Source: Escherichia phage JS10. From it: a stretch of 64,000 nt of DNA. Shown in pieces: positions 11,200 to 55,544 of this stretch. The notes under the pieces were generated by a model. That model saw only the letters and a program-made list of their open reading frames with translations, made no database searches and was not told the DNA's origin. Where the stretch lies: the sequence record EU863409; one strand, given 5' to 3'. The translations under genes and the position numbers were made by a program. How positions within the stretch are numbered: the first letter of the stretch is position 1; every line of letters begins with the position of its first letter.

Positions 11200-11814
11200 T
11201 CAGTAAGAAAGAACGGAAAGATTCCAAATGGTGTAATTATTCCATTTAGGATTTCTCTCAATAGAGTCTACGCGTAGCGTAGTTCCCGCAGGGAACATCA
11301 TCTCATCTTCATCATTAATTAATTGTAAGTTTGCTACACGTGTAGATTCAGGAAATGCGCCTGGGAACTCTTCAGGGGGCGCAGCACATAACATTTTAAA
11401 GATTTCTTCCTGATAATTGTACACAAATGGTGCATCATTAATACAAAAGATATTAAATGTGCCGTAGAAGTTATAAGATGCGAAATTCCTTGCTACGTTG
11501 AAGTCTTTAGAGAAGCTCATCACACGGTCGAATTCAATTACCGCACCCACACACATTGTGGACTCTAGATACTTCAGGGTCTTTTTAGATATACCGCGAT
11601 AGAGCTTATCAGGCACTACAGAAGTCAGGTTCTTACGAATAATTTTGTTCAGAGTTTCCTGGATAGAATCAGGTTTATTTTCCATACACTGCCAGAGCGT
11701 GCTCTGTTCTAAATCAGAATACACCTCATCAATTTCTATCTGGGTATTCTCACGGAAATCATCGCATTTGGCATTGTTGATAAATTCTGCTAATTTATGG
11801 CTTGGATATAACAT
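11200..11814 (-). CDS. modA: ADP-ribosyltransferase ModA-like
   Basis: 204 aa; LYRG motif; paralogous to next ORF; T4 order srd-modA-modB. Confidence 0.65.
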   Translation of the reverse strand: MLYPSHKLAEFINNAKCDDFRENTQIEIDEVYSDLEQSTLWQCMENKPDSIQETLNKIIRKNLTSVVPDKLYRGISKKTLKYLESTMCVGAVIEFDRVMSFSKDFNVARNFASYNFYGTFNIFCINDAPFVYNYQEEIFKMLCAAPPEEFPGAFPESTRVANLQLINDEDEMMFPAGTTLRVDSIERNPKWNNYTIWNLSVLSY

Positions 11815-11827
11815 ATTATTCTCCTCA

Positions 11828-11869
11828 GTTGATAGAAAGATAGTACCACAAGCTTCCTTGCCTGTAAAC
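11828..11869 (-). promoter_or_regulatory. early-promoter cassette
   Basis: gttgatagaaagatagta...gtaaac, overlapping the modB stop. Confidence 0.5.
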
Positions 11870-12438
11870 TAAAAATCCAACATTTTTAAATGAATTATTT
11901 TGTACTCGATTTCGTATGGGTCTCTTTTGATAGTTTCGATTTCCACAATCTCAAACCGTGATAGACTAGAGACCATGAACTCACATTCAGTTTCAACCAT
12001 ATCATAGAGGTCAATACGGGTTTCATCTATTTCAAGTTCGTCCACATTCCCTGCAAGAACAAGGTCGATAGCATGATTGTAGTAGTCAAAAATGAAGGGT
12101 GCATTCCTGAGACTTAAGATGGTTTTGGTTCCATATTCCCATGCCCCTGCGAACTGACGAGCCTGAGAGTATTGTGTACTAAAAGAAGTAACCCGACCAG
12201 GAGACCAGTGGCACCCTACTGAAAGGAGCTCTAATTGCTCAAGTTCTCTGGTGGTAATCCCACGATAAAGCTCTACCGGAACCACTGAAGTGACATGCTT
12301 ACGAACCAGTTTGTCTAGGTCGTAATGGAAGTTAGGGTCTTTTTTGGCATCCAGACATTTCTCTAACAACGCTTGTTCAGATTTTGAAAATTTGGAATTG
12401 ATTCGGTCTTGATAAAGACATTTTTGTTCGATGTTCAT
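11869..12438 (-). CDS. modB: ADP-ribosyltransferase ModB-like
   Basis: 189 aa; ELYRG motif; paralog of the modA ORF. Confidence 0.65.
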   Translation of the reverse strand: MNIEQKCLYQDRINSKFSKSEQALLEKCLDAKKDPNFHYDLDKLVRKHVTSVVPVELYRGITTRELEQLELLSVGCHWSPGRVTSFSTQYSQARQFAGAWEYGTKTILSLRNAPFIFDYYNHAIDLVLAGNVDELEIDETRIDLYDMVETECEFMVSSLSRFEIVEIETIKRDPYEIEYKIIHLKMLDF

Positions 12439-16566: not shown

Positions 16567-16782
16567 TATTTTTCCTTGGGCTCTAAATTAATAGAGCCAT
16601 TATATCATTCGTTTTCGGATTTTTCTTTACGCTTTTTAGATGGGATTTGTTCAGGCCCTTTGTTGACGACTGCGCCTGAGGTAGTTCCGGAGGCAATATT
16701 AGATGGATTTCCACCAGCATCGCCTGCGACCATATCTTCGTTCATAACTTCTTTAAAAGATTTCATAGGCTCCTGGCCTTAT

Positions 16783-16974
16783 TTATATTACGAAAATAGC
16801 TTTATCACCATTTGCATCAGTGACTTCATATGTATCTTCGTGGTAAAGTGGGATAATCCAAGTTACGCCATCACCGGCAATAATATGGATAGCTTCTTGG
16901 TCTTTTGATACGATTTCATATTCTTCGAACAGTTCGAATACAGAAATCTTAGAGCCCGTACACATTGCAGTCAT
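16783..16974 (-). CDS. hypothetical protein
   Basis: 63-aa ORF. Confidence 0.4.
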   Translation of the reverse strand: MTAMCTGSKISVFELFEEYEIVSKDQEAIHIIAGDGVTWIIPLYHEDTYEVTDANGDKAIFVI

Positions 16975-16975
16975 A

Positions 16976-17416
16976 TTAACCTCGGTTCATAAAGGCATTA
17001 AAAATCTGGTCGTCAATTGAATAAACCGGAGCTTCCAGAATTTTCAACAGACTGTTTTTGATATACTTGCTAGGGATATCCATATTAACAGCATCATTCA
17101 ATTCGTTGTCCGGGAGGATGTCTTTAAATTCGAATCCATCAAACTCAACCTTGTCAGGAATACCTTCAGCGAAAAAATAAACCAATTGATGCATTGCATT
17201 ACACGAAAATAATTTAGACCTTACCGCAATAAGTTCTTGCCAATGGTTTAATTCTCTGTTAAGAAGTTTATGGGCCATTGTAATTCTATCATCACTATCA
17301 ACAAGAAAATAGCCCAGGTACTGGTGGTCGTCGCTCCAAAACATCCTGTATGCTTGTGCATTTGGATTTTTGCAACGGAGCTTTTTGATAACCAAATTTC
17401 TGTTAATCTTATTCAC
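16976..17416 (-). CDS. hypothetical protein
   Basis: 146-aa ORF. Confidence 0.5.
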   Translation of the reverse strand: MNKINRNLVIKKLRCKNPNAQAYRMFWSDDHQYLGYFLVDSDDRITMAHKLLNRELNHWQELIAVRSKLFSCNAMHQLVYFFAEGIPDKVEFDGFEFKDILPDNELNDAVNMDIPSKYIKNSLLKILEAPVYSIDDQIFNAFMNRG

Positions 17417-17702
17417 CTGTCACCTCTTTAACAATATTTTTGTTATCGAAATTAGCATCACAGTACAGAACATAGTTATACTGCATAACACCGCTGGAAG
17501 CCAATTGGTCGGATACTTCTTTAACCATATCAGGACGGTCCCGTTTAGTGATATTCATGATATCAGCGTAAATCTGATGTTCAACTGATTCTTGGTCTGC
17601 AGTCATAGACCATTCACAAAGGTCTTTATCCAATCCAGCCGTAACTGGAGCTGTACCACATGATGCTACTGTAAGGATTGCTGCGATTAATAACTTTTTC
17701 AT
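17409..17702 (-). CDS. secreted/periplasmic protein, Spackle-like by size and position
   Basis: 97 aa with N-terminal signal peptide MKKLLIAAILTVASCG; T4 sp is about 97 aa in the 61-41 interval. Confidence 0.45.
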   Translation of the reverse strand: MKKLLIAAILTVASCGTAPVTAGLDKDLCEWSMTADQESVEHQIYADIMNITKRDRPDMVKEVSDQLASSGVMQYNYVLYCDANFDNKNIVKEVTGE

Positions 17703-17718
17703 TTTTAACTCCTCATTA

Positions 17719-17760
17719 GTTGATAGGTCTATAGTACCACTACCATAGACCGATGTAAAC
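17719..17760 (-). promoter_or_regulatory. early-promoter cassette
   Basis: gttgataggtctatagtacca...gtaaac. Confidence 0.6.
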
Positions 17761-17761
17761 T

Positions 17762-18001
17762 TTATTTTAACGAATCTTCCAAATAAATTTTACGGAATTT
17801 ACGTTTTGTCTGACGAATCTGACGCTTAGTAGGCTTCACAGGAAATTCGAAGAACTCTACGTATTCTTGTTCATAATCGTTGTGGCCGACTGAAAGAACT
17901 AGTTCCCAGCTGCTTACGGTGCGTTGGATAAACATATTATGCTTACCAAAAGATTTATTCCAAAAAGAGCTAGGGGTTGGCTTCATTAATACAATATTCA
18001 T
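17762..18001 (-). CDS. hypothetical protein
   Basis: 79-aa ORF. Confidence 0.45.
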   Translation of the reverse strand: MNIVLMKPTPSSFWNKSFGKHNMFIQRTVSSWELVLSVGHNDYEQEYVEFFEFPVKPTKRQIRQTKRKFRKIYLEDSLK

Positions 18002-51989: not shown

Positions 51990-52376
51990 TTATTCTAACG
52001 TTAACAAATACTTAGTCTGGTAAAAGACACCAGTGATGTCGTCCAAAGTCGATTGGATGGCCTTAGGAAGATTTTTGTAGATTTTATCAGACGCTTTAAT
52101 AAGTTCATCAAGAAAATCTATGGGGTCTTTAGGCAGTTCTGAAGCAGATGGTAGTGATGCTTTATATTCTTTGCCACTAAATCCTAAATACTGTTCACTG
52201 AACTGGTCTAGTGGTCCTTGAACTTCTGTATAATAGAAGTCATATGCTTTGTGTCTTGCATAGCTTTTGGTTTCCAAATGGGCTGACTTAAAATAGGCTA
52301 AAGAAACCAACAGCCAACCAATATAAGAATCTACTTCAGTCCCTCGACTAAGTACGAAATCATTGAATTTCATCAT
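51990..52376 (-). CDS. hypothetical protein
   Basis: 128-aa ORF. Confidence 0.5.
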   Translation of the reverse strand: MMKFNDFVLSRGTEVDSYIGWLLVSLAYFKSAHLETKSYARHKAYDFYYTEVQGPLDQFSEQYLGFSGKEYKASLPSASELPKDPIDFLDELIKASDKIYKNLPKAIQSTLDDITGVFYQTKYLLTLE

Positions 52377-52653
52377 CTACCTTCATTAGTTTAGCGTATC
52401 GTTCTCCGATAGCCCGACCTTCAATCGAGCAAGACTCTATTGTATTGCAATTTGAAATTTTCCAAGAAGCAGTTACATAAGCCCAGTAGTCTTCGGAGGC
52501 CTTTACACTAGGTTTACTCATTTGCGCATAAACTGGCATCGCACTACTAGCAAAGGCGTCCATCAATTTAGGGTCGGATTTGTTTGCTAGTGAAGATGTT
52601 GGGCTTAAACATCCAATCATAAGGATACAAGCCACTGTACGGAAAATACCCAT
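52360..52653 (-). CDS. rI: lysis-inhibition regulator rI (periplasmic antiholin)
   Basis: 97 aa with signal-anchor N-terminus; resembles T4 rI in size and C-terminal Cys-containing region; correct position upstream of tk. Confidence 0.6.
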   Translation of the reverse strand: MGIFRTVACILMIGCLSPTSSLANKSDPKLMDAFASSAMPVYAQMSKPSVKASEDYWAYVTASWKISNCNTIESCSIEGRAIGERYAKLMKVDDEIQ

Positions 52654-52746: not shown

Positions 52747-53025
52747 TTATAGCTTTTTAAGCTTACGACAATACGAATAGAACACGTCGTTAAAATTATA
52801 TTCAACCCAATTCCTCTGTATAGGCGAGGTAATGGAAAGCATATAATGCGCTTTAATTAAATCCATCCCATTTTTATTAGGGCATTCTTTATTATTAGCA
52901 TTATACGTCGCTGCTACAACTTCTATCTCTCTTTTGTAAGCCGCATCATCCATGATGGGCGAAAGAACAATATAAGAGATGGCCACAGCGAACGCTAGAA
53001 TTAAAATCTTTGAATTTAGGTCCAT
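52747..53025 (-). CDS. small membrane/secreted protein
   Basis: 92 aa with hydrophobic N-terminus. Confidence 0.45.
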   Translation of the reverse strand: MDLNSKILILAFAVAISYIVLSPIMDDAAYKREIEVVAATYNANNKECPNKNGMDLIKAHYMLSITSPIQRNWVEYNFNDVFYSYCRKLKKL

Positions 53026-54024: not shown

Positions 54025-54212
54025 TATTCTTCTACATGCTGTTTACGTTTATTTTTATCTATAAAAGTATATTCAACGTATTCACCAATATACCATTTAT
54101 CGGTGTTATGCTGACTTTTTATAGGGCATTTAGTTACTCGGGTTTCGGTCCAGCGCCGAATAATTTCCGCTTTGTTTTTAGGGTCAAACGGATGCGGATA
54201 ATGGGCTTTCAT
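54000..54212 (-). CDS. hypothetical protein
   Basis: 70-aa ORF. Confidence 0.4.
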   Translation of the reverse strand: MKAHYPHPFDPKNKAEIIRRWTETRVTKCPIKSQHNTDKWYIGEYVEYTFIDKNKRKQHVEEYCLKVQWL

Positions 54213-54651
54213 AATCTACCACCACTAAATTAACATCAGGAGTAAACAAATTAATCAATTGATAAACCTTGTCCCAATCACCACCAGCAATACCACAACC
54301 AATGCGAGGAATATAAATTCTTGGTTTAAACAAAAGACCTTTTGCTTGTTGATTTAATTCTATCATACAGTTTACTAAAGCACCATAATCAAGATTAGGG
54401 CCTGGTTCGTATTGGGTGTATAAATTATAGCAAATTTGTCCATTATTACCTGTGGCTTGGGTATATGTTCCAAGTTTTGCTATATCACCTAAATAAGTGG
54501 TTTTATCGATAGCAAGAATAGGTGGATAAGCCTTAGCCAATTGTCCAGCTACACCTGAACCCATTGTGTGAAAGCAGTTACACCCGTGTGCAACATTATT
54601 GCCTTGAAGAAACAGGGCGACGATATCGCCCTTAATATAATCAATAATCAT
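54184..54651 (-). CDS. macro-domain-like protein
   Basis: 155 aa; VAHGCNCFHTMGSGVAGQLA resembles the macro-domain N-x-x-N...G-x-G-V-A-G ADP-ribose pocket. Confidence 0.5.
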   Translation of the reverse strand: MIIDYIKGDIVALFLQGNNVAHGCNCFHTMGSGVAGQLAKAYPPILAIDKTTYLGDIAKLGTYTQATGNNGQICYNLYTQYEPGPNLDYGALVNCMIELNQQAKGLLFKPRIYIPRIGCGIAGGDWDKVYQLINLFTPDVNLVVVDYESPLSASV

Positions 54652-55004
54652 TTAGAGTTTAGCCCTCGGTTGTAAGAGTCAACGAGTCTGTCTACCATAG
54701 ACGCGCACATTTCTTTGTACTTTTTATCAGATGGAACACATTCAGTAACGTTTAGACGTTGCTCGTATCTTTTAGAAAGAGTTTTCTCTTTCATTCGGCG
54801 ATGCTCGACGTCGTTCTGTCCATCTTTAAAAGCAGCTGTTATTTTTGAACTGAATTCAATAACACATTCAGTATTACTCGGATGACAATAATCTTTTGCT
54901 GTACGGGTGGCATACTCGACAATTGAATTATTTGTATCATCAACCTGTGATGCTAATACTCCCGGAGCAATCAACATAAGCGCTATAGTCATCTGTTTAA
55001 TCAT
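54648..55004 (-). CDS. secreted/periplasmic protein
   Basis: 118 aa with signal peptide. Confidence 0.5.
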   Translation of the reverse strand: MIKQMTIALMLIAPGVLASQVDDTNNSIVEYATRTAKDYCHPSNTECVIEFSSKITAAFKDGQNDVEHRRMKEKTLSKRYEQRLNVTECVPSDKKYKEMCASMVDRLVDSYNRGLNSK

Positions 55005-55544
55005 TTAATATACCGCCTCAAACATCTTTTTAGATTTTAGGTAATTGGCCTTTTCTAGAACTTCGGAAGCATATTTACTGCCTGCTTTGACATTCCAGCC
55101 CGCATTATAAGAAGCAATCGCTTTTCTCAGGTCACCTTTGTGAACATCAATCCAATAAGACAGTTCAATGTAGGCCCAAGAGGCACTGTTCTGTCGTTTT
55201 TGGACCATACGGATTATTTCTTTGTCTGTCATCTTCCAACCTACCTGTTTAACACGACTTCTTAACGTAGGCAAGTAATTTTGGAACATGCCATAAGCAT
55301 GGTGCTTATCTTTATTTAAACCCTGATTAATTCCGGCGGATGATTCTTGCCATAGTAATCCGGCCATGATATATCCTAATCCTTTTTGATTAGGGTTTTC
55401 TTTGAACTTTCCCGACTTTTGGTATTGTTCACCGAAAGCATACGCATAATGTAAATTATCGAGTTGTTCATTACTGAAAGTAGGCTCTACGCTATAGGCA
55501 GACATACTAACTGTCAATAGTAAAGTGGCTAATACTTTTTTCAT
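55005..55544 (-). CDS. secreted lytic-transglycosylase-like protein
   Basis: 179 aa; signal peptide; LLWQESSAG and AYGMFQ resemble the SLT-domain E-S and GLMQ motifs. Confidence 0.5.
   Translation of the reverse strand: MKKVLATLLLTVSMSAYSVEPTFSNEQLDNLHYAYAFGEQYQKSGKFKENPNQKGLGYIMAGLLWQESSAGINQGLNKDKHHAYGMFQNYLPTLRSRVKQVGWKMTDKEIIRMVQKRQNSASWAYIELSYWIDVHKGDLRKAIASYNAGWNVKAGSKYASEVLEKANYLKSKKMFEAVY

Follow-up and report, generated by a model that had tools for sequence, protein, structure and literature searches.

A widespread defence against phages is the ADP-ribosylation of DNA by DarT toxins, and the erasers carried by phages decide which of them infect DarTG-carrying strains. In the DarTG2 system, the toxin DarT2 is countered by DarG (Thermus aquaticus, PDB 5M31/5M3E; M. 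tuberculosis, 5M3I), a protein of about 330-360 amino acids that is encoded beside darT and carries a C-terminal DarT-binding domain. SCO6735 of Streptomyces coelicolor (5E3B), which is induced by DNA damage and linked to antibiotic production, cleaves DarT-made dT-ADPr on ssDNA and shields cells from DarT; its Q85A and Q85E mutants are inactive, N27S is almost inactive and G128E has a much reduced activity, with part of the proposed mechanism derived from molecular dynamics, and human TARG1 cleaves dT-ADPr too (PMC9411070).

Phage-encoded erasers have also been described. PhiKZ gp104, also named AdfM, is a stand-alone phage macrodomain which defeats DarTG2, removes DarT2-made ADP-ribose from DNA in vitro, and is imported into the phage nucleus (PMC13309987). 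T4 AdfN (gp30.3, NADAR), of unrelated fold, erases ADP-ribosylation of DNA in the manner of an orphan antitoxin; it acts specifically on guanine-linked ADPr (DarT1) and does not affect DarTG2. Because T4 remained resistant to DarTG2 even without adfA and adfN, a further factor was suspected. In a 2025 preprint, in which the evidence is genetic only, transposon screening of T4 on a DarTG2 host yielded tk.4 as the single significant gene, and a clean tk.4 knockout rendered T4 sensitive to DarTG2; the gene was named AdfM, for 'anti-DarT factor macrodomain', and the DarTG1 result given there concerns another gene (bioRxiv 10.1101/2025.11.20.689424). The Tk.4 protein has been found in T2-infected cells.

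The locus described here lies in a window of 64,000 nucleotides (the whole stretch of DNA that was analysed) that belongs to a JS98-like (Dhakavirus) T4-type phage and shares 98% DNA identity with phages UP19 and JS98. The ORF 54184..54651, on the minus strand and exactly where an earlier note had placed it, starts with ATG and encodes a free-standing product of 155 amino acids, whose identity was established from the ORF list, Pfam Macro, PHROG 335, identity to T4 Tk.4, and the AlphaFold2 fold. In UP19 and JS98 the counterpart gene is labelled tk.4, 'phosphatase' or 'macro domain protein'. The product was 54% identical to T4 Tk.4 over its full length (residues 1-155, E 2e-64) and 77% identical to JS98 Tk.4. 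When T4 Tk.4 was used as a tblastn query, this ORF was the sole match in the window, and a tblastn search with the window protein returned T4 among its matches, at the tk.4 position. The gene order regB, vs.1, vs, tk.4, tk.3, (an ORF), tk.2, tk is the same in the window, JS98, and T4. Located between vs and tk.3 in synteny with T4, the gene is the tk.4 ortholog of Dhakavirus (the JS98 group).

The genes regB, vs.1, vs, tk.4, and tk.3 overlap or are tightly packed on the minus strand. The translation start context of tk.4 (54648..54667, minus strand), as read from the sequence and the ORF coordinates, comprises a GAGGG Shine-Dalgarno sequence (54663..54667) and an ATGA overlap (54648..54651) in which the stop codon of vs meets the start codon of tk.4. 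Between 52500 and 58500, neither promoter-like sites (18 versus 16.4 expected from shuffles) nor terminator-like sites (6 versus 4.1 expected) were enriched, and no promoter is claimed for tk.4.

The 155-aa protein is confirmed as a macrodomain; profile, fold, and motif all agree with the earlier proposal of a macro-domain-like protein. Pfam Macro (PF01661) matched residues 22-132 over model positions 2-117 of 118, with 32.8 bits (E 7.5e-08) against a curated gathering cut-off of 22 bits, and PHROG 335, labelled 'phosphatase', matched at 1.6e-67. The AlphaFold2 model was confident (mean pLDDT 95.0, pTM 0.89), and the three-layer alpha/beta/alpha macro fold, whose absence would have spoken against the proposal, was present in the model and recovered by Foldseek: each of the 50 PDB matches listed was a macrodomain or a protein designed on the basis of one, with a probability of 1.00. 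The top solved structures were TARG1 (E 2e-9, TM 0.75-0.83), Poa1p (E 3e-9), BT1257, DarG, and SCO6735. A profile search against the PDB gave 72.8 bits for BT1257, 69.1 for TARG1, 64.2 for SCO6735, 54.9 for Poa1p (its sequence match being limited to the N-terminal half, residues 3-89), and 44.8 and 41.1 for DarG, with only 20 bits for coronavirus Mac1. By profile and by fold, with the Foldseek ranking in agreement, the nearest solved relatives belong to the ALC1/TARG1-like class (TARG1, DarG, SCO6735, BT1257, Poa1p).

Both ADP-ribose-binding loops, N-x(5-6)-G-x-G-[VI]-A and the G-x-G phosphate loop, are present, and their residues (N25, G31-S-G33-V-A35, and G118-C-G120) are invariant or nearly so among homologs. 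Loop 1 (residues 20-39, VAHGCNCFHTMGSGVAGQLA; 54535..54594, minus strand), delineated by alignment, includes H22 (54586..54588), N25 (54577..54579), and the G31-x-G33-V-A35 turn. The earlier note had read this segment as the macrodomain ADP-ribose binding loop, and the reading was borne out by the N...GxG[VI]A pattern and by H22, G23, N25, G33, and A35, which were invariant in a 46-sequence alignment; in a larger set, H22, G23, and N25 were carried by all 119 aligned homologs. The phosphate-binding loop (residues 115-126, PRIGCGIAGGDW; 54274..54309, minus strand), also delineated by alignment, includes G120 (54292..54294), with P115, G118, and G120 invariant in the homolog alignments. The position of the catalytic lysine is occupied by Q80 (54412..54414), within the NLYTQ motif (residues 76-80; 54412..54426, minus strand). 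The column of Q80, which was kept in 120 of 120 homologs, corresponds to K84 of TARG1, K80 of DarG, K78 of PhiKZ gp104, and Gln85 of SCO6735, as obtained by profile alignment to TARG1/BT1257, hhalign to PhiKZ gp104, and homolog alignment.

H22, N25, Q80, and G120 align with H24, N27, Q85, and G128 of SCO6735 and were invariant across 117-120 homologs. SCO6735 and BT1257 (Bacteroides, 2AFC/2FG1) were among the best sequence matches of solved structures and resemble the window protein in their Gln at the catalytic-Lys position, their H-x-C-N motif, and their stand-alone organization (about 150-180 amino acids). The motif GCG[IL]AGGxW in the phosphate-binding loop is common to all three proteins and not found in DarG. 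However, SCO6735 and BT1257 are bacterial chromosomal genes with only 26-28% identity to the phage protein, and their 'mobile loop' after the Gln is longer and contains lysines which the phage protein does not have. On alignment, the active site is assigned to the SCO6735/BT1257 type (His22, Asn25, Gln80, Gly120), without a catalytic lysine, and not to the lysine type of DarG and TARG1. The SCO6735 type is defined by such a Gln, held by the Asn of loop 1, together with the His and the phosphate-loop Gly. With the lysine missing from such a site, catalysis would probably proceed through substrate positioning by Gln80 and an activated water, as proposed for SCO6735. The Gln-type assignment predicts that Q80, N25, H22, and G120 should be the informative residues.

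TARG1/OARD1 (4J5R/4J5S) was the best structural match but relies on a Lys84/Asp125 dyad, whereas the phage protein has Gln80 at the first of these positions and A122 at that of the catalytic D125. DarG shares the macro fold (Foldseek E 3e-7, TM about 0.7), the conserved loop 1 Asn, and the proposed target, DarT2, but has a catalytic Lys80 in FPTK, the corresponding residue of the phage protein being Gln80 in NLYTQ, and VNTVN in place of AHGCN. Membership in DarG was rejected: the protein scored 20.8 bits with the NCBIfam DarG equivalog NF048014 (cut-off 250), matching only positions 3-141 of the 338-position model, it lacks both the C-terminal domain and the lysine used in catalysis, and no darT lies beside its gene, with no DarT2-like sequence found in the window. 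With the PADLOC DarG model, the window protein scored 24.5 bits and PhiKZ gp104 132.9; DarG-based HMMs under-detect counter-defence of the Gln type.

PhiKZ gp104 differs from the window protein by its Lys in FPTK and its match to M. tuberculosis DarG (9e-25), and shows 18% identity to the Tk.4 profile (hhalign). Judged by these alignments, it appears to be of a different lineage, and the name AdfM would cover two independently recruited enzymes. AdfN, which resembles the proposed enzyme as an antitoxin-like eraser from the same phage group, is not encoded in the window. In JS98, no 61.2 (T4 gene 61.2 being AdfA) is annotated near gene 61.

The window protein and T4 Tk.4 have the same HGCNC and NLYTQ motifs and the same vs/tk.3 position, but differ in the phosphate-binding loop (IGAGIGKGNW in T4, IGCGIAGGDW in the window protein) and in the middle third of the protein, which is divergent. 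The anti-DarTG2 phenotype belongs to T4 tk.4; from orthology, at 54% identity, we infer that the window protein shares its activity and role. We consider it likely, with a probability of about 0.72, that tk.4/adfM encodes a free-standing macrodomain ADP-ribosylglycohydrolase that removes host-added ADP-ribose from phage DNA and so defeats DarTG2. Upon infection, the host DarTG2 system would free the DarT2 toxin, which would ADP-ribosylate thymidines of single-stranded phage DNA and block replication. The macrodomain cleft of the phage enzyme would bind the ADP-ribose and hydrolyse the ribose-thymine N-glycosidic bond, giving back normal DNA and free ADP-ribose; the protein would thus act like an orphan DarG antitoxin, without the toxin-binding C-terminal domain. 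Undoing the DNA ADP-ribosylation caused by DarT-like host toxins was the first function suggested in the earlier note, and the T4 genetics agree with it. The Tk.4-type macrodomain family is already described, and its JS98-group copy confirms the same counter-defence in that group, as read through orthology. Eraser content matters when therapeutic T4-like phages are picked.

A more far-reaching proposal, which is rather doubtful, is that Tk.4-type AdfM forms a separate lysine-less (Gln-type) lineage, recruited by phages from widespread bacterial SCO6735/BT1257-like stand-alone macrodomains independently of PhiKZ AdfM, which would derive from DarG. Its members would be writer-independent erasers of thymidine-linked, and possibly other, ADP-ribosylation, and might bind DarT2, with a variable patch at residues ~44-75 tuning the contact.

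Tk.4-like macrodomains were found in 2737 phage records, including phages of Pseudomonas, Vibrio, Acinetobacter, and Aeromonas as well as 85-93 kb phages of Escherichia, Salmonella, and Shigella. ModB-like genes were found in 1067, and among the matches listed almost all were T4-like enterobacterial phages of about 165-175 kb; phage genomes with the macrodomain outnumber those with ModB-like genes about 2.5-fold. The family comprised 1314 clusters at E<=1e-30 and 9721 at 1e-10. Around 80 bacterial homologs, a tblastn search with a single P. aeruginosa DarT2 query (E<=10), which very divergent DarTs could escape, detected no DarT within 6 kb. ARH and NADAR neighbours were sporadic (four loci each), and no neighbour was shared by more than seven loci, the most widely shared being housekeeping genes of related taxa. 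Some family members were fused to NADAR+DUF4326 and others to NUDIX; the fused or adjacent partners NADAR, ARH, and NUDIX all have functions in ADP-ribose removal or clean-up, which speaks for the eraser reading. One fused relative gave a weak ThsA_Macro match.

Other substrates, namely protein Glu/Asp-ADPr, RNA-ADPr, Appr1p, and O-acetyl-ADPr, are conceivable for the window protein. Its main or additional task could be to remove the protein (Glu/Asp) or RNA ADP-ribose added by other host ADP-ribosyltransferases, with DarT2 being one writer among several. SCO6735 and TARG1 accept Glu/Asp-linked protein ADPr as well as dT-ADPr (PMC9411070), the family is very large and spans many phage groups, no DarT was detected beside the 80 bacterial members examined, which suggests a writer-independent role, and an eraser acting independently of toxin structure has been argued for AdfN. 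However, the relevant preprint passage reports a tk.4 effect on the DarTG2 host only (bioRxiv 10.1101/2025.11.20.689424), and T-even phages are still sensitive to the mRNA ADP-ribosyltransferase system CmdTAC (PMC11618068, abstract), so this RNA mark, at least, persists. We regard such a broader role as decidedly unlikely.

Small-molecule ADP-ribose metabolism was also considered, with the protein acting as an ADP-ribose-1''-phosphate phosphatase or an O-acetyl-ADP-ribose deacetylase, or breaking down NAD-derived immune signals. Iyer et al. argued that soluble ADPr derivatives are the main targets of Macro domains in phages (PMC9503650), and the weak ThsA_Macro match of the fused relative also counts for such a role. 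JGI calls several homologs 'O-acetyl-ADP-ribose deacetylase', PHROG 335 is labelled 'phosphatase', and yeast Poa1p, an Appr1p phosphatase, was among the best structural matches. However, these labels are not experimental but transferred from the general macrodomain family, and we did not take 'phosphatase' (PHROG 335, RefSeq) as evidence; the sequence match to Poa1p covers residues 3-89 only. To our knowledge, T4 RNA repair (Pnk/Rnl1) leaves no 2'-phosphate and yields no Appr1p. For the T4 ortholog, the one known phenotype involves a DNA-modifying toxin (bioRxiv 10.1101/2025.11.20.689424). A role in small-molecule metabolism appears very unlikely, and the processing of NAD-derived signals, raised in the earlier note, found no support.

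The earlier note had also stated that the phage encodes ModA and ModB ADP-ribosyltransferases, and this proved correct: ModA (11200..11814, minus strand) and ModB (11869..12438, minus strand) both matched PHROG 832, 'RNA polymerase ADP-ribosylase' (1.5e-44 and 4.9e-38, respectively), at the JS98 modA and modB positions. With both writers in the same window, and one-genome writer/eraser pairs being common in toxin-antitoxin systems, the macrodomain could be imagined to undo the ADP-ribosylation of host proteins by the phage's Alt, ModA, and ModB, or their RNAylation by ModB. Such a role is highly improbable. The tk.4 gene lies about 42 kb from modA/modB in another gene cluster, and the macrodomain occurs in many phages outside the Mod-carrying groups (2737 versus 1067 records), a distribution that does not support the link implied by the title of the note. 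The residue that Alt, ModA, and ModB modify is arginine, from which ADPr is taken off by ARH/DraG-type enzymes; no macrodomain of the TARG1/DarG class is known to do so. Functional coupling with ModA/ModB was rejected on distribution and bond chemistry, and the suggested erasure of the phage's own marks was left without support. Moreover, the tk.4 defect is reported on a DarTG2 host only in the relevant preprint passage (bioRxiv 10.1101/2025.11.20.689424).

Nucleotide and protein comparison with JS98 revealed a mosaic, fast-diverging patch in tk.4 (54400..54560, minus strand; roughly residues 31-84, mostly 44-75), in which nucleotide identity fell to only 42-72%, compared with 98-100% in the flanks. 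In the homolog alignment, this patch was the least conserved portion of the Tk.4 family, and the allele in the window was the common form among related phages, that of JS98 being the outlier. The least probable reading, in which the protein neutralises DarT2 mainly by stoichiometric binding, with residues ~44-75 as the contact surface and hydrolysis as a secondary activity, could draw on this localized patch between otherwise 98-100% identical phages and on the inhibition of DarT in vitro by catalytically dead SCO6735, DarG, and TARG1, of which SCO6735 is the strongest (PMC9411070), but the protein has only 155 amino acids and no DarT-binding C-terminal domain as in DarG, the active-site residues are invariant in 120 homologs, which argues for selection on catalysis, and, as the window allele is common and JS98 the outlier, diversifying selection is not demonstrated.

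Finally, the scan picked out a terminator-like structure inside the coding sequence, a GC-rich RNA hairpin (GGGCGAU-AUC-GUCGCCC) with a U-rich run after it, at codons 7-13 of tk.4 (54614..54632, minus strand). It is a tentative candidate for a regulatory element of tk.4. The hairpin was stronger than 98-99.5% of synonymous-codon resamples, and its z-score against dinucleotide shuffles was only -1.8 to -2.2. It was absent from five other genera compared and was kept in T4, JS98, sb3, Delraymugoa, and YN3, the last of which exhibited a two-sided change from C-G to A-U.

The ORF at 54184..54651 (minus strand) starts with an ATG and encodes a protein of 155 aa, in which residues 20-39 correspond to the peptide VAHGCNCFHTMGSGVAGQLA, quoted in the earlier note as fitting a macro-domain ADP-ribose binding loop. 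The protein matched the Pfam Macro model PF01661 with 32.8 bits over residues 22-132 (curated threshold, 22 bits), as well as PHROG 335 (1.6e-67). The AlphaFold2 model, built from an alignment of 46 homologs, had a mean pLDDT of 95.0 and a pTM of 0.89, and its top Foldseek matches among solved structures, all with a probability of 1.00, were the macrodomains TARG1, Poa1p, BT1257, DarG, and SCO6735. The macro-domain call is upheld by the Pfam score and by a confidently predicted fold; the absence of a macro fold, named in the note as counter-evidence, was not what we found, because the best matches of the model were macrodomains. ModA (11200..11814) and ModB (11869..12438), which the note had attributed to this phage, were both located in the window.

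At the DNA level, the tk.4 region was 98% identical to that of Escherichia phages UP19 and JS98 (genus Dhakavirus, Tevenvirinae). The gene is annotated as 'tk.4' in JS98, 'phosphatase' in RefSeq, and 'macro domain protein' in phage CLB_P2; the macro-domain annotation is already public in the records of near-identical phages. The labels 'phosphatase' and 'O-acetyl-ADP-ribose deacetylase' are annotations carried over by transfer; sequence similarity to Poa1p extended over the N-terminal half only. The gene order on the minus strand, regB - vs.1 - vs - tk.4 - tk.3 - orf - tk.2 - tk, was the same in JS98 and T4. The protein shared 54% identity with T4 Tk.4 over all 155 residues, with no second match elsewhere in the 64-kb window, and the gene is orthologous to a counter-defence gene that has been described before. 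The stop codon of vs overlaps the tk.4 start (ATGA), which is preceded by GAGGG, an arrangement consistent with co-translation of closely packed genes. When the surroundings of tk.4 were scanned for consensus promoters, the result did not exceed chance.

In the HIDEN-SEQ preprint of November 2025, in which a T4 transposon library was screened on a DarTG2-expressing host, tk.4 was the sole significant hit, and its clean deletion rendered T4 DarTG2-sensitive; the gene was named adfM and its structure described by the authors as resembling M. tuberculosis DarG (bioRxiv 10.1101/2025.11.20.689424). Of the functions listed in the earlier note, the deletion phenotype supports the first, namely the reversal of ADP-ribosylation by DarT-like host toxins. 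It also closes a gap left by earlier work, in which T4 without adfA and adfN (gene 30.3, whose NADAR product acts specifically on guanine-linked ADP-ribose) was still DarTG2-resistant. The Tk.4 protein has been detected in T2-infected cells, and literature searches turned up no Tk.4-type protein that had been assayed in vitro. A 2026 preprint calls T2 tk.4 a 'putative thymidine kinase', a mislabel derived from the gene name.

When the family profile was compared with solved structures, the closest relatives were BT1257 (72.8 bits), TARG1 (69.1 bits), SCO6735 (64.2 bits), and Poa1p (54.9 bits), rather than the two DarG entries (44.8 and 41.1 bits). The DarG equivalog model gave 20.8 bits, below its cut-off of 250 bits, and matched in its macrodomain part only. 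Gln80, within the motif NLYTQ, aligns with the catalytic lysine of TARG1 (K84) and DarG (K80), and Ala122 aligns with TARG1 Asp125. SCO6735 (Gln85) and BT1257 likewise have Gln in the lysine column, and share with the window protein an H-x-C-N motif and a GCG[IL]AGGxW phosphate loop. SCO6735 removes the ADP-ribose that DarT attaches to thymidine in ssDNA and shields cells from DarT; its activity is abolished by Q85A or Q85E, almost abolished by N27S, and reduced by G128E (PMC9411070). Among the 120 homologs retrieved, the equivalents of its key residues, Q80, N25, H22, and G120, were invariant in 117-120. From this mutagenesis and the invariance of the equivalent residues, we infer by analogy that the phage protein is probably active and hydrolyses thymidine-linked ADP-ribose in the lysine-independent manner of SCO6735; it would act on phage DNA as an orphan antitoxin-like eraser.

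A substrate range wider than thymidine-linked ADP-ribose, or direct binding of DarT, is possible as well, because both are documented for SCO6735. Removal of the phage's own marks, also proposed in the earlier note, is unlikely, even with ModA and ModB encoded in the window: 2737 phage records from many groups carry the macrodomain, versus 1067 with ModB-like genes, tk.4 lies 42 kb from modA/modB, and Alt, ModA, and ModB form arginine-linked ADP-ribose, a bond outside the known activity of this macrodomain class.

PhiKZ gp104 was independently named AdfM in 2026 and shown to remove DarT2 marks in vitro (PMC13309987). By sequence, gp104 is a true DarG-type macrodomain: it matched M. tuberculosis DarG at 9e-25, scored 132.9 bits with the PADLOC DarG model (the window protein and T4 Tk.4 reached 24.5 and 36 bits, respectively), and possesses the FPTK lysine, whereas T4 Tk.4 is Gln-type and SCO6735-like; identity to the Tk.4 profile was only 18%. 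[quoted passage not shown] What we add is modest: the Gln-type active-site assignment, and the distinction of T4-type and PhiKZ-type AdfM as separate lineages.

Clustered at 50% identity, the family comprised 1314 clusters at E<=1e-30 and 9721 when the cut-off was relaxed to 1e-10; the majority of its members are stand-alone proteins of 145-190 aa. In a scan of one genome per species, at least 435 bacterial relatives from many phyla were confirmed (33-43% identity), and 80 loci were kept for neighbourhood analysis. By tblastn with a single P. aeruginosa DarT2 query, a DarT2-like gene was detected within 6 kb in none of the 80, and no neighbour recurred except housekeeping genes common to related taxa; an ARH-type ADP-ribosylglycohydrolase gene adjoined the relative in 4 loci and a NADAR gene in 4. 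Relatives also occurred as fusions, P0242 (472 aa) to NADAR+DUF4326 and P0116 (247 aa) to a NUDIX hydrolase. In the Macro-NADAR fusion, a single polypeptide would unite the DNA ADP-ribose erasers for thymine and for guanine. These neighbours and fusions place the family among functions that remove or clean up ADP-ribose, and the neighbourhood and fusion evidence argues against capture from a DarTG operon.

Within tk.4, a mosaic patch at 54400..54560 (residues about 31-84) was only 42-72% identical to JS98 DNA, with a 12-nt length difference, versus 98-100% in both flanks, so that the two proteins are only 77% identical. The window allele is the common one, also found in UP19, WG01, AnYang, and VR5, with JS98 as the outlier; across the family, too, conservation is lowest in this patch. 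At 54614..54632 (minus strand, codons 7-13), this AT-rich genome has a GC-rich hairpin, GGGCGAU-AUC-GUCGCCC, with a U-rich run after it. It was present in five E. coli/Shigella phages of at least four lineages (T4, JS98, sb3, Delraymugoa, and YN3), with U-G changed to U-A in the Krischvirus Delraymugoa and a compensatory, two-sided C-G to A-U change in the 137-kb YN3. In the phages of Enterobacter, Cronobacter, Klebsiella, Acinetobacter, and Aeromonas that were compared, tk.4 lacked the hairpin. Of 5000 synonymous-codon resamples, only 24-92 reached its folding energy (stronger than 98-99.5%). Possible roles are attenuation or termination of transcription after vs, or control of mRNA stability.

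No NADAR (AdfN-like) or DarT-like sequence was found anywhere in the 64-kb window, and no homolog of T4 gene 61.2 (AdfA, an anti-DarT1 factor) is annotated in JS98 between gene 61 and sp, an interval (16600-17900; about 16600-17850 in the window) that holds three unnamed ORFs, orf28-30. Just upstream of tk.4, Vs (54648..55004, minus strand) has a signal-peptide-like hydrophobic N-terminus, MIKQMTIALMLIAPGVLASQ, as do Vs.1 (55005..55544, minus strand; MKKVLATLLLTVSMSAYS) and T4 Vs (L001:2657-3004, in the T4 comparison locus; MTKILVLCIGLISFSASASA). Such a putative export signal is odd on a protein named 'valyl-tRNA synthetase modifier'. Vs.1 matched the SLT transglycosylase model below threshold (17.1 versus 21.3 bits). 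Downstream of tk, two small ORFs at 52360..52653 and 52747..53025 (both minus strand), annotated in JS98 as hypothetical only (orf98 and orf99), start with segments that resemble the N-termini of membrane proteins or lipoproteins: MGIFRTVACILMIGCLSPTSS, in which LMIGC may be a lipobox, and MDLNSKILILAFAVAISYIVL.
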